From assembly GCA_964016885.1 (NCBI GenBank), contig OZ024743.1, positions 110,608,001 to 110,672,000 of the forward strand: DNA of 64,000 nt, in the 5' to 3' direction. Positions within the stretch are counted from its first letter, which is position 1, and each line of letters begins with the position of its first letter. This document shows positions 22,161 to 27,102 of the stretch, one piece after another. The notes beneath the pieces were generated by a model that made no database searches, had not been told where the DNA came from, and saw only the letters and a program-made list of their open reading frames with translations. Source of the stretch: Eledone cirrhosa (Eukaryota). Made by a program: the position numbers and the translations under genes.

Positions 22161-22164
<4 letters not shown>

Positions 22165-25100
22165 TCGATCTTTCTAATATATTTAGCTCTGGACATAGCT
22201 ATCCACCAGTTAATTTTATTGCTCATTTTTTGTCGATTCTATTGAGTGATGAATAGCTTTTGTTTTATTTTAACATGTCTATTGAGCACTCTAATTCGAT
22301 ATGTGTATTTCCACATTCACTCGAATTGTTTTCGCGGATATAGGGGTCATCTCCCTTGTCTAATGCCATGTGCGTTTTTCACCGCTAGTTGACTCCTTTG
22401 CCGCCAGGATAAAACTCGTTGACAACGTAAACTCCGTTCCACTTATTCTAGTAGGCTTTTATATTTATATGTGAGCTGATAGAGTACTGTCTAAGGATTT
22501 ACAGAAACCCATGAAGCTAGATTTAACACCTTTCTAGTGGGTCCGGGTATGATTTTACATTCATTTAAATTATTGACGTATTGTTTTATTGATATTTTTT
22601 ATCTGTTTGGCCCGAATCTTCCTTTATCGATTTTAAATCGTATGGTTGATTGTAGACTTGTTCTATATGTGACGGTATTTTAACGATAGTTATAGCTCTG
22701 ATTCATCTGAATTATTGAGCCCTCTGCCGCTCATATCGAATTTCGTTTTTCGTGAACTCGTGCGCCGATTTTTCGATACTCGATCTTTCTAATATATTTA
22801 GCTCTGGACATAGCTATCCACCAGTTAATTTTATTGCTCATTTTTTGTCGATTCTATTGAGTGATGAATAGCTTTTGTTTTATTTTAACATGTCTATTGA
22901 GCACTCTAATTCGATATGTGTATTTCCACATTCACTCGAATTGTTTTCGCGGATATAGGGGTCATCTCCCTTGTCTAATGCCATGTGCGTTTTTCACCGC
23001 TAGTTGACTCCTTTGCCGCCAGGATAAAACTCGTTGACAACGTAAACTCCGTTCCACTTATTCTAGTAGGCTTTTATATTTATATGTGAGCTGATAGAGT
23101 ACTGTCTAAGGATTTACAGAAACCCATGAAGCTAGATTTAACACCTTTCTAGTGGGTCCGGGTATGATTTTACATTCATTTAAATTATTGACGTATTGTT
23201 TTATTGATATTTTTTATCTGTTTGGCCCGAATCTTCCTTTATCGATTTTAAATCGTATGGTTGATTGTAGACTTGTTCTATATGTGACGGTATTTTAACG
23301 ATAGTTATAGCTCTGATTCATCTGAATTATTGAGCCCTCTGCCGCTCATATCGAATTTCGTTTTTCGTGAACTCGTGCGCCGATTTTTCGATACTCGATC
23401 TTTCTAATATATTTAGCTCTGGACATAGCTATCCACCAGTTAATTTTATTGCTCATTTTTTGTCGATTCTATTGAGTGATGAATAGCTTTTGTTTTATTT
23501 TAACATGTCTATTGAGCACTCTAATTCGATATGTGTATTTCCACATTCACTCGAATTGTTTTCGCGGATATAGGGGTCATCTCCCTTGTCTAATGCCATG
23601 TGCGTTTTTCACCGCTAGTTGACTCCTTTGCCGCCAGGATAAAACTCGTTGACAACGTAAACTCCGTTCCACTTATTCTAGTAGGCTTTTATATTTATAT
23701 GTGAGCTGATAGAGTACTGTCTAAGGATTTACAGAAACCCATGAAGCTAGATTTAACACCTTTCTAGTGGGTCCGGGTATGATTTTACATTCATTTAAAT
23801 TATTGACGTATTGTTTTATTGATATTTTTTATCTGTTTGGCCCGAATCTTCCTTTATCGATTTTAAATCGTATGGTTGATTGTAGACTTGTTCTATATGT
23901 GACGGTATTTTAACGATAGTTATAGCTCTGATTCATCTGAATTATTGAGCCCTCTGCCGCTCATATCGAATTTCGTTTTTCGTGAACTCGTGCGCCGATT
24001 TTTCGATACTCGATCTTTCTAATATATTTAGCTCTGGACATAGCTATCCACCAGTTAATTTTATTGCTCATTTTTTGTCGATTCTATTGAGTGATGAATA
24101 GCTTTTGTTTTATTTTAACATGTCTATTGAGCACTCTAATTCGATATGTGTATTTCCACATTCACTCGAATTGTTTTCGCGGATATAGGGGTCATCTCCC
24201 TTGTCTAATGCCATGTGCGTTTTTCACCGCTAGTTGACTCCTTTGCCGCCAGGATAAAACTCGTTGACAACGTAAACTCCGTTCCACTTATTCTAGTAGG
24301 CTTTTATATTTATATGTGAGCTGATAGAGTACTGTCTAAGGATTTACAGAAACCCATGAAGCTAGATTTAACACCTTTCTAGTGGGTCCGGGTATGATTT
24401 TACATTCATTTAAATTATTGACGTATTGTTTTATTGATATTTTTTATCTGTTTGGCCCGAATCTTCCTTTATCGATTTTAAATCGTATGGTTGATTGTAG
24501 ACTTGTTCTATATGTGACGGTATTTTAACGATAGTTATAGCTCTGATTCATCTGAATTATTGAGCCCTCTGCCGCTCATATCGAATTTCGTTTTTCGTGA
24601 ACTCGTGCGCCGATTTTTCGATACTCGATCTTTCTAATATATTTAGCTCTGGACATAGCTATCCACCAGTTAATTTTATTGCTCATTTTTTGTCGATTCT
24701 ATTGAGTGATGAATAGCTTTTGTTTTATTTTAACATGTCTATTGAGCACTCTAATTCGATATGTGTATTTCCACATTCACTCGAATTGTTTTCGCGGATA
24801 TAGGGGTCATCTCCCTTGTCTAATGCCATGTGCGTTTTTCACCGCTAGTTGACTCCTTTGCCGCCAGGATAAAACTCGTTGACAACGTAAACTCCGTTCC
24901 ACTTATTCTAGTAGGCTTTTATATTTATATGTGAGCTGATAGAGTACTGTCTAAGGATTTACAGAAACCCATGAAGCTAGATTTAACACCTTTCTAGTGG
25001 GTCCGGGTATGATTTTACATTCATTTAAATTATTGACGTATTGTTTTATTGATATTTTTTATCTGTTTGGCCCGAATCTTCCTTTATCGATTTTAAATCG

Positions 25101-27102
25101 TATGGTTGATTGTAGACTTGTTCTATATGTGACGGTATTTTAACGATAGTTATAGCTCTGATTCATCTGAATTATTGAGCCCTCTGCCGCTCATATCGAA
25201 TTTCGTTTTTCGTGAACTCGTGCGCCGATTTTTCGATACTCGATCTTTCTAATATATTTAGCTCTGGACATAGCTATCCACCAGTTAATTTTATTGCTCA
25301 TTTTTTGTCGATTCTATTGAGTGATGAATAGCTTTTGTTTTATTTTAACATGTCTATTGAGCACTCTAATTCGATATGTGTATTTCCACATTCACTCGAA
25401 TTGTTTTCGCGGATATAGGGGTCATCTCCCTTGTCTAATGCCATGTGCGTTTTTCACCGCTAGTTGACTCCTTTGCCGCCAGGATAAAACTCGTTGACAA
25501 CGTAAACTCCGTTCCACTTATTCTAGTAGGCTTTTATATTTATATGTGAGCTGATAGAGTACTGTCTAAGGATTTACAGAAACCCATGAAGCTAGATTTA
25601 ACACCTTTCTAGTGGGTCCGGGTATGATTTTACATTCATTTAAATTATTGACGTATTGTTTTATTGATATTTTTTATCTGTTTGGCCCGAATCTTCCTTT
25701 ATCGATTTTAAATCGTATGGTTGATTGTAGACTTGTTCTATATGTGACGGTATTTTAACGATAGTTATAGCTCTGATTCATCTGAATTATTGAGCCCTCT
25801 GCCGCTCATATCGAATTTCGTTTTTCGTGAACTCGTGCGCCGATTTTTCGATACTCGATCTTTCTAATATATTTAGCTCTGGACATAGCTATCCACCAGT
25901 TAATTTTATTGCTCATTTTTTGTCGATTCTATTGAGTGATGAATAGCTTTTGTTTTATTTTAACATGTCTATTGAGCACTCTAATTCGATATGTGTATTT
26001 CCACATTCACTCGAATTGTTTTCGCGGATATAGGGGTCATCTCCCTTGTCTAATGCCATGTGCGTTTTTCACCGCTAGTTGACTCCTTTGCCGCCAGGAT
26101 AAAACTCGTTGACAACGTAAACTCCGTTCCACTTATTCTAGTAGGCTTTTATATTTATATGTGAGCTGATAGAGTACTGTCTAAGGATTTACAGAAACCC
26201 ATGAAGCTAGATTTAACACCTTTCTAGTGGGTCCGGGTATGATTTTACATTCATTTAAATTATTGACGTATTGTTTTATTGATATTTTTTATCTGTTTGG
26301 CCCGAATCTTCCTTTATCGATTTTAAATCGTATGGTTGATTGTAGACTTGTTCTATATGTGACGGTATTTTAACGATAGTTATAGCTCTGATTCATCTGA
26401 ATTATTGAGCCCTCTGCCGCTCATATCGAATTTCGTTTTTCGTGAACTCGTGCGCCGATTTTTCGATACTCGATCTTTCTAATATATTTAGCTCTGGACA
26501 TAGCTATCCACCAGTTAATTTTATTGCTCATTTTTTGTCGATTCTATTGAGTGATGAATAGCTTTTGTTTTATTTTAACATGTCTATTGAGTACTCTAAT
26601 TCGATATGTGTATTTCCACATTCACTCGAATTGTTTTCGCGGATATAGGGGTCATCTCCCTTGTCTAATGCCATGTGCGTTTTTCACCGCTAGTTGACTC
26701 CTTTGCCGCCAGGATAAAACTCGTTGACAACGTAAACTCCGTTCCACTTATTCTAGTAGGCTTTTATATTTATATGTGAGCTGATAGAGTACTGTCTAAG
26801 GATTTACAGAAACCCATGAAGCTAGATTTAACACCTTTCTAGTGGGTCCGGGTATGATTTTACATTCATTTAAATTATTGACGTATTGTTTTATTGATAT
26901 TTTTTATCTGTTTGGCCCGAATCTTCCTTTATCGATTTTAAATCGTATGGTTGATTGTAGAGTTGTTCTATATGTGACGGTATTTTAACGATAGTTATAG
27001 CTCTGATTCATCTGAATTATTGAGCCCTCTGCCGCTCATATCGAATTTCGTTTTTCGTGAACTCGTGCGCCGATTTTTCGATACTCGATCTTTCTAATAT
27101 AT
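22161..27102 (+). repeat. 615-bp tandem repeat, 8 near-identical units plus a 22-bp terminal redundancy, embedded in (TA)n (family F)
   Basis: atactcgatctttctaatatat at 22161, 22776, 23391, 24006, 24621, 25236, 25851, 26466 and 27081. I spotted only two substitutions (26592 and 26962, last unit). No ORF. Confidence 0.97.
22475..22544 (+). ncRNA. Atypical hammerhead-like motif, once per 615-bp unit
   Basis: g-CTGATAGA-gta(ctgtctaaggatt)tac-a-GAAA-ccca-tgaag-ctaga(tttaacacctt)tctag-tggg-TC-c. Strong stem III closing on GUC, but extra nucleotides in the core and only ~1 bp of obvious stem I. Confidence 0.45.

Follow-up and report, generated by a model that had tools for sequence, protein, structure and literature searches.

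How a 615-nucleotide (nt) sequence came to stand eight times in tandem, nearly unchanged, inside a TA microsatellite is the question raised by a stretch of 64,000 nt from Eledone cirrhosa (assembly GCA_964016885.1, contig OZ024743.1, positions 110,608,001 to 110,672,000 of the forward strand), the whole of which is called the window below. A preliminary description, made from the letters alone, had proposed either a single event of processive reverse transcription round a circular RNA bearing an atypical hammerhead ribozyme, or a very recent tandem amplification. The conclusion reached here is that the 615-nt repeat is a non-autonomous Penelope-type, retrozyme-like element with a previously unrecognised conserved RNA core, and that the array is one insertion within a large repeat family of known class, not a unique event. 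It is likely that this insertion was made by a Penelope-type reverse transcriptase (RT) priming inside the 615-nt non-coding RNA and running for some eight rounds on a circular monomer. The array and its borders are as follows:

22161..27102, + strand: insertion of 8.04 head-to-tail units of a non-autonomous Penelope-type retroelement, 5' truncated at about unit position 1, its 3' end being the fixed end of the family.
22161..22775, + strand: first copy of the 615-nt unit, non-coding, 36% GC.
22133..22163: (TA)n target on the left; it stands where an older long interspersed nuclear element (LINE) has its 3' tail.
27097..28783: right (TA)n tract, degenerate.

As regards the array itself, the preliminary description was accurate in its period, copy number and coordinates (eight units and 22 nt of a ninth, ending at 27102), in its two substitutions (unit 8 has 26592 C>T and 26962 C>G, the only differences between the eight units), in its TA-like junctions (atat followed by atactcg on the left, ctaatatat followed by acat on the right) and in the lack of an open reading frame (ORF), the longest stop-to-stop frame within the unit measuring 62 codons. 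The array length is that of the assembly, and the figure of exactly eight units is an accident of this copy's 5' truncation point. Folded as a circle, the unit has a z of -2.5 on the + strand and of -1.7 on the other (40 shuffles each).

The genome-wide search for other copies, which had been proposed as a check, revealed a dispersed mobile family with a conserved 3' end. In the 3.0-Gb assembly the unit gave 534 first-look candidates, 35 of which, once scored, yielded 223 matches on many chromosomes, all of the 150 matches listed being about 100% identical to it. At 37 loci and in the window, the 3' ends of the arrays lie at unit 21-22 and run into (TA)n, while the 5' ends are scattered. Over 162 segments (five samples, with two loci counted twice), the 3' end is at unit 21-22 in 140 and at unit 528 in 12, and the 5' ends are spread over the whole unit; the remaining 10 comprise seven sequence edges, N gaps or low-complexity artefacts and three real exceptions. 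Moreover, the exact pattern of the 3' end joined to (TA)n has 2,435 matches genome-wide (control 0), and a core pattern leaving out the two youngest subfamilies finds 1,957 more (control 2). Older subfamilies, 87%, 80% and 62% identical to the youngest, retain the homologous 3' end. Ends of this kind, constant at 3' and scattered at 5', are what target-primed reverse transcription leaves behind, and they identify the + strand as the RNA. Three elements of the unit are involved in these ends:

27094..27102, + strand: fixed 3' end, CTAATATAT running into TA, putative main priming site (140/162 segments; 2,435 junctions).
Unit 14-26, first internal instance 22174-22186, + strand: small hairpin CTAA-TATAT-TTAG, whose loop is the putative main priming site.
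22681..22692 (unit 521-532), + strand: hairpin TAAC-GATA-GTTA, putative second priming site, used at other loci, mostly by the inverted arm.

The two 3' ends, 109 nt apart (the 'tail'), with that at unit 528 the upstream one, each lie in the loop of a small hairpin. The unit-528 end was found at 12 loci genome-wide, in 8 of them as the inverted arm of a head-to-head insertion, and three of the first loci examined were head-to-head pairs with their other outer end at unit 528. Short, non-coding, low-GC head-to-tail repeats at dispersed loci are the habit of retrozymes; the fixed 3' end, frequent 5' truncation and partial tandems are those of non-autonomous Penelope-like elements (PLEs), as are the inverted 5'-truncated arm, the one-end tail from two priming sites and the bias for (TA)n targets.

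Tandem arrays are also formed by DNA rolling-circle elements of the Helitron kind, whose termini are 5'-TC and CTRR-3', and the youngest 3' end of the 615-nt family, CTAA before T, resembles the latter. The family as a whole lacks these termini: other subfamilies end in CTAC, CTAT or ACTT, and no TC start follows the end in the tandem junctions. It is PLEs that are matched by the tail, the inverted arms and the many sub-unit copies with truncated 5' ends, and a Helitron-like origin is regarded as extremely improbable.

A plausible partner enzyme is present in the same genome. An intact PLE frame of 821 codons, with an inverted arm and TA targets, lies at L263:5240-9850 (G000:C1 ~1,138,200-1,142,850). 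All of its 150 scored matches are 98-100% identical and several keep the frame; with at least 150 near-identical copies, this young PLE must have been active recently. Its look-alikes carry the HTH_animal and GIY-YIG families, and a Pfam search with the frame itself gave no match. Like the 615-nt family, it occurs in head-to-tail tandems and with inverted arms at TA targets, and of 71 of its 3' ends that were counted, 36 lie at one site and 31 at another 88 nt away. The Penelope-type reading therefore rests on the fixed 3' end, the scattered 5' ends, the inverted arms ending at unit 528, the retention of the end across subfamilies and the same anatomy in the young PLE. Separately, a minimal hammerhead-like motif was seen in the 3' untranslated region of this PLE, and many other such motifs of PLE type, from several families, in the loci examined. 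An older PLE family, whose endonuclease is GIY-YIG-like, is represented in the window by fragments (38265-38909 on the - strand and ~1421-2507 on the + strand; 12,056 first-look candidates), and we take it to be Neptune-type.

If reverse transcription accounts for the ends, the nature of the template has to be sought within the arrays. Variants were compared across 33 array rows, each of three complete units or more (242 complete units in total), and 40 were confined to a single unit and 11 intermediate, 8 of the latter in one two-haplotype array; the 40 of 51 stand against 29.7 expected under a duplication tree (P = 0.0009). Substitutions relative to the window unit run through the whole array in 21 of the 33 rows, and several of these array-wide changes were found in one array only (for example 48A>T in 6/6 units, 66T>A in 5/5, 494A>G and 299T>C), which requires that the array was re-expanded from one unit. 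The longest array has 18 complete units. A circular monomer accounts most simply for this pattern. Hence, of the proposed processive copying round a 615-nt circle, the origin by reverse transcription and, probably, a unit-length template are upheld by the fixed 3' end, the scattered 5' ends, the thousands of loci and the variants, whereas its uniqueness is not.

Two arrays deserve separate mention. One of them (L072, G000:C24 ~28,618,900-28,626,500) changes haplotype after its sixth unit, the next seven being of a second haplotype; the variants are linked and non-adjacent, and the array runs into an N gap. In the other (L068, 15.5 units), positions ~182-279 of the second unit from the 3' end are replaced by an apparent inversion, possibly the result of a template switch within a hairpin.

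The variants also bear on the alternative of an ordinary satellite, amplified as DNA after insertion, or of an assembly artefact. Near-identical units, and the variants common to adjacent units, few as they are, would suit a satellite, and one unplaced contig with noisy indels (L031) would suit an artefact. The fixed 3' end, the dispersed loci and the variant spectrum, which is unlike that of gradual duplication, contradict both, as do the non-integer lengths, the many sub-unit copies and the inverted arms; furthermore, the youngest arrays are the longest, sampled older copies being mostly of less than 2.5 units. The head-to-tail junction also occurs in contigs of three public runs (X1, X2 and X11), one of which may be the source sample. 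This alternative is accordingly held to be very unlikely.

The 5' ends, scattered as they are, accumulate at one place, which adjoins the most conserved part of the unit:

22502..22617, + strand: conserved core, made up of CAGAAACCC, a bulged hairpin, GGGUC and a helix CGGGU/(A,G,U)CCCG around an AU-rich loop that varies in length; candidate processing site.
22552..22563 (unit 392-403), + strand: pile-up of the 5' truncation points of other copies (12/47, 0.95 expected).

The 47 segments come from loci picked on the 3' end, in ignorance of where the 5' end lay, after removal of four arrays that extended beyond the sequence edge; the excess over the flanking density has a P of 5e-10, and the region is less TA-like than several sites with fewer 5' ends. 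A pile-up at a conserved fold points to an RNA end, or to a block to the RT, at that place. The cut predicted by the hammerhead reading, after 22543 (unit 383/384), is just upstream of it; 5' ends exactly at unit 384, the base after GUC, number 2 of 162. A linear monomer cut at 383/384, primed at unit 22 and trimmed, would give the common copies of 0.38 unit, and so would a transcription start or stall.

Several observations weigh against a circular template and a processed RNA. Most arrays in the variant test were chosen as best matches, which favours homogeneity, and single-unit variants are also expected from a rapid burst at the DNA level or from mutation after insertion. Intermediate or mosaic variants are present in 5 of the 33 array rows (L056, L072, L110 and A44, together with adjacent doublets such as L046 and L055). 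Template jumping or a rapid DNA burst could also underlie the arrays. The pile-up is 9-20 nt downstream of GUC and not at GUC, is nearly absent from the long young arrays, and could itself mark a transcription start or an RT stall. Cleavage of the RNA and the circle are steps that we infer from DNA sequence, and the priming of a PLE in vitro needs no ribozyme cleavage (PMC11167929). Finally, no sequence common to the 615-nt unit and the PLEs, such as the kinship with the pLTR of an autonomous PLE that would be looked for in a non-LTR retrozyme, was detected by blastn or a covariance model, the comparison covering two of many PLE families.

From these points a coherent rival can be built, in which there is no circle: the template would be a linear read-through multimer, or the RT would jump between templates, the pile-up being a transcription start or stall and the fold a promoter or protein-binding element. 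In its favour, a PLE in vitro uses mainly unprocessed RNA as its substrate (PMC11167929), mosaic and two-haplotype arrays do exist (L072, L056 and A44), and 5'-end pile-ups occur at 1.38 and 2.4 units too. On the other hand, copying of a linear multimer only shortens arrays, while the private array-wide changes need re-expansion from one unit; no single-unit substitution is shared at the same rank between different loci; and jumping within a mixed pool predicts frequent mosaics, 29 of the 33 array rows being free of intermediate variants. We therefore consider this rival rather unlikely, and retain rolling reverse transcription on a circle as the preferred reading.

What would produce such a circle is the next matter, and here the preliminary description had pointed to a new hammerhead architecture or else a dead motif. 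Two features concern this motif:

22476..22483, + strand: CTGATAGA, hammerhead-like 5' box, conserved in the two youngest subfamilies only.
22443..22487, + strand: upstream hairpin, in which the CUGAUAGA box is predicted to be sequestered; from one subfamily to another the two arms change in concert.

The letters described are all present in unit 1: CTGATAGA at 22476-22483, GAAA at 22504-22507, a bulged stem and GTC ending at 22543. The pairing of the stem is another one: in the relatives it is ACCC/GGGU, a 5-nt bulge and GCUAGA/UCUAG(U/C), not accca/tgggt. In dinucleotide shuffles of the unit, both boxes with a 4-bp stem III closing on NUH arose in 88 of 3000 cases, and the boxes alone in 219 of 3000, so that conservation is needed before a hammerhead can be believed. 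A test by conservation and covariation in other copies divides the motif. GAAA, the A15.1-U16.1 pair, stem III and the NUH site (GUC) are kept down to 62% identity, the A-U pair and the next C-G pair each being found in all 36 rows of an alignment. The 5' box is lost: CTGATAGA occurs, as an A6a variant, in 80/83 and 37/41 distinct blocks of the two youngest subfamilies and in 0/8 and 0/37 of the next two, where the box reads CUGAUAG(U/C/G) or YGGACAGU, and CUGA(N1-2)GA is absent from 28 further untruncated loci. There is hence no conserved C3-U4-G5-A6-N7-G8-A9 box. Neither do stems I and II flank the core, stem II passing from GUA/UAC to GGG/UAC already in the second subfamily and stem I consisting of a single Watson-Crick pair adjoining the core.

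Searches for relatives with a canonical core agree with this: the pattern with CTGATGAG gave only 2 unrelated matches, that leaving out the A before GAAA 2 matches (both mutants of the family), and one allowing variants of stem-loop length 6 matches, all deletion mutants. Scans with Rfam found no ribozyme in three subfamilies, and around the array nothing other than TA-driven miRNA noise. A canonical motif for comparison is provided by an insertion of another family in the same TA tract:

28783..29947, + strand: different family, 466-nt unit repeated ~2.4 times, with an inverted arm.
29190-29252, + strand: canonical type I hammerhead in the 466-nt unit, predicted cut after 29234.

This hammerhead, with a 6-bp stem I, a palindromic ACUAGU stem III and a GUA site, was flagged by Rfam weakly (E = 0.049, below the gathering score) and served as the positive control; forcing it to fold costs 3.1 kcal/mol, against 10.4-17.4 for the 615-nt family. 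The 466-nt family is common in the loci examined (78-99% identity) and looks like an ordinary retrozyme of the non-LTR kind (lacking long terminal repeats). An 11-nt word of its tail region is shared with the 615-nt unit, which is not significant (E = 0.49).

Since older subfamilies have spread as tandems even though they no longer have the CUGAU[A]GA box or the gta/tac stem II, the hammerhead is unsupported, and the motif is not a conserved hammerhead. The proposal that the circle results from a cut after 22543, made by an atypical but active type I hammerhead with an A6a insertion and one A too many before GAAA, can nevertheless call on the conserved half of the motif, on the pile-up just downstream of the predicted cut, on a natural A6a insertion described as a low-activity variant (PMC3088659) and on a protein-assisted PLE hammerhead (PMC11167929). 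It is opposed by the absence of the box from the older subfamilies and further loci, the broken stem II, the single pair of stem I, the cost of the fold and the Rfam scans. It is not impossible, given that known variant, that the youngest form has some hammerhead activity, selection not having kept the box; as the source of the circle, this hammerhead is judged quite unlikely.

The part that has been conserved is another structure, with the order CAGAAACCC, hairpin, GGGUC and, directly adjoining, CGGGU...ACCCG. The majority lines of four subfamilies, the most distant of which was found by BLAST and not by motif, do not differ in the words CAGAAACCCAA, GGGTCCGGGTA and CCCGAAT, and the inner hairpin shows compensatory changes (CUAGA/UCUAG, CUGGA/UCCAG and UCGG/CCGA). 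In the 36-row alignment the distant subfamily, with its 14 rows, is shifted by one column at this hairpin, so that pairing counts are understated. A further 30 loci were selected on GAAACCC and GGGTCCGGGTA, and only other features count as evidence there: CGGGU pairs with a downstream ACCCG, itself outside the search pattern, in 30/30, with loops of 11-53 nt, and CA precedes GAAA in 30/30. In one further subfamily (L346, L347, L350, L351 and L353), the helix, CGGGUA/UACCCG, closes a 9-nt loop, the most compact natural core.

This core fits no Rfam family. It might be suggested, tentatively, that the junction CA-GAAA-CCC/hairpin/GGG-UC followed by CGGGU...ACCCG is a new self-cleaving ribozyme, or a hammerhead derivative without the CUGANGA strand, which would cut after GUC and supply the circles copied by a Penelope RT into arrays of up to ~19 units. 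In that case a whole group of animal retrozymes would escape searches based on the hammerhead.

Other identities were considered and rejected. The ribozymes of the hepatitis delta virus (HDV) type have a 7-bp P1, a 3-bp P3, a P1.1 and a conserved P2 pseudoknot; in the 615-nt family, P1 would have 4 bp and P3 5-6 bp, and the GAAG/CUUC pairing is found in 22/36 rows with both strands lost in the other 14. A loop-to-distal pseudoknot CAYCY/GGNUG seemed to covary in the 36 rows (13/36 unpaired at the varying pair) and fails in further subfamilies, where CAACC faces GAAUG. A comparison with the general features of the hairpin, twister and pistol cores gave no match. Splicing, between a CAG acceptor at 22504 and a G-GUA(U/A) donor at 22547, would lack a pyrimidine tract at the acceptor and could not yield a unit-length product from these sites. 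A tRNA-derived short interspersed nuclear element is not indicated either, 0 tRNA genes being found in 10 loci covering several subfamilies.

The preferred reading can thus be put as a sequence of steps. Tandem loci would be transcribed. The transcript may then be cut at or near the GAAACCC...GUC-CGGGU...ACCCG fold, whether through its own action or that of a protein, with ligation of some monomers into circles, this being the weakest step. To judge from the DNA ends, a GIY-YIG/RT protein would nick (TA)n and start the cDNA in the hairpin loop at unit ~18-22, the second strand being sometimes primed at unit 528, with head-to-head arms as the outcome. Unligated linear monomers would give the common 0.38-unit copies, and circles the pure arrays of up to 18 or more units.

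Why this should matter beyond one genome lies in the unsettled source of the more-than-unit copies of PLEs: circles have been proposed (PMC4209133), yet cleavage is dispensable in vitro (PMC11167929). Because one genome here offers an intact young PLE together with very long pure concatemers, insertions in their thousands and two priming sites already mapped, circle and template jumping can be told apart by direct test. Furthermore, with a conserved core at the 5'-end pile-up and outside the Rfam families, the question of a new ribozyme is decidable on a 130-nt transcript.

Two other retrotransposons share the window with the array:

19124-20035 and 19938-22055: endonuclease frame and RT frame, respectively, of the older LINE left of the array.
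52951-58039, - strand: retrotransposon with ORF1, endonuclease and RT frames in pieces, presumably L1/Tx1-like.

In public data, part of the unit was found in 17 rows from 13 studies, under many organism codes. Seven of the 8 runs examined have contigs of the unit (single family contigs, depth 2-15), two deep pieces of X12 being AT-rich look-alikes, and the raw reads of run X18 gave 0 matches to it. Trace carry-over is a simpler reading of the many organism codes than horizontal transfer. No RNA run was listed among the public runs as holding the unit, and in the literature, supplements aside, no publication on the 615-nt family or its conserved fold was found. As a lead only, run X2 has one closed 615-nt contig of a single haplotype with no older subfamily, unlike X1 and X3.

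Three known systems come close to the 615-nt family. The first are the A6a type I hammerhead (Perreault et al. 2011, PMC3088659) and the minimal hammerheads of PLEs (Cervera & de la Pena 2014, PMC4209133), with which the youngest copies have in common CUGA-UA-GA, GAAA and GUC in order. The family differs from them in that conservation does not extend to the 5' box, A9 or stems I and II, and in that stem III is long and intramolecular, not short and palindromic.

The second are the PLEs with an endonuclease (EN+), for which the literature describes copies in partial tandem, a truncated copy in inverted orientation, a one-ended tail and a bias towards (TA)n (PMC8557442); a purified protein of one PLE has been seen to nick both strands of AT-rich DNA and to begin synthesis within its RNA, at two sites in stem-loops (PMC11167929). 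The 615-nt family shares with them 5' truncation, partial tandems, the inverted 5'-truncated arm, a one-ended tail arising from two stem-loop priming sites and (TA)n targets (Craig et al. 2021, PMC8557442; Frangieh et al. 2024, PMC11167929). Unlike them it has no ORF, forms arrays of up to 18 complete units and shares no sequence with the PLEs tested; its tail measures 109 nt, compared with 30-40 nt in published PLEs and 88 nt in the active PLE of this genome.

The third are the non-LTR retrozymes, which the 615-nt family resembles in its way of working; the class has been described as non-coding repeats in tandem from which circles arise and whose mobilisation is probably due to PLEs (PMC7229834; preprint 10.64898/2026.07.22.740005). 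Like the 615-nt family, those of metazoans have non-coding, low-GC tandem units in dispersed arrays, a proposed mobilisation by PLEs and tandem cDNA made from a circle (Cervera & de la Pena 2020, PMC7229834), and the 615-nt unit falls within their range of 51-972 bp (Li, Clavereau & Pollet 2026, 10.64898/2026.07.22.740005). The defining feature of retrozymes is that each unit has a type I hammerhead, and their circles have been demonstrated; the 615-nt family, whose circles are deduced, lacks that hammerhead and has in its place the GAAA/stem III/GUC half, joined to the CGGGU/ACCCG helix.

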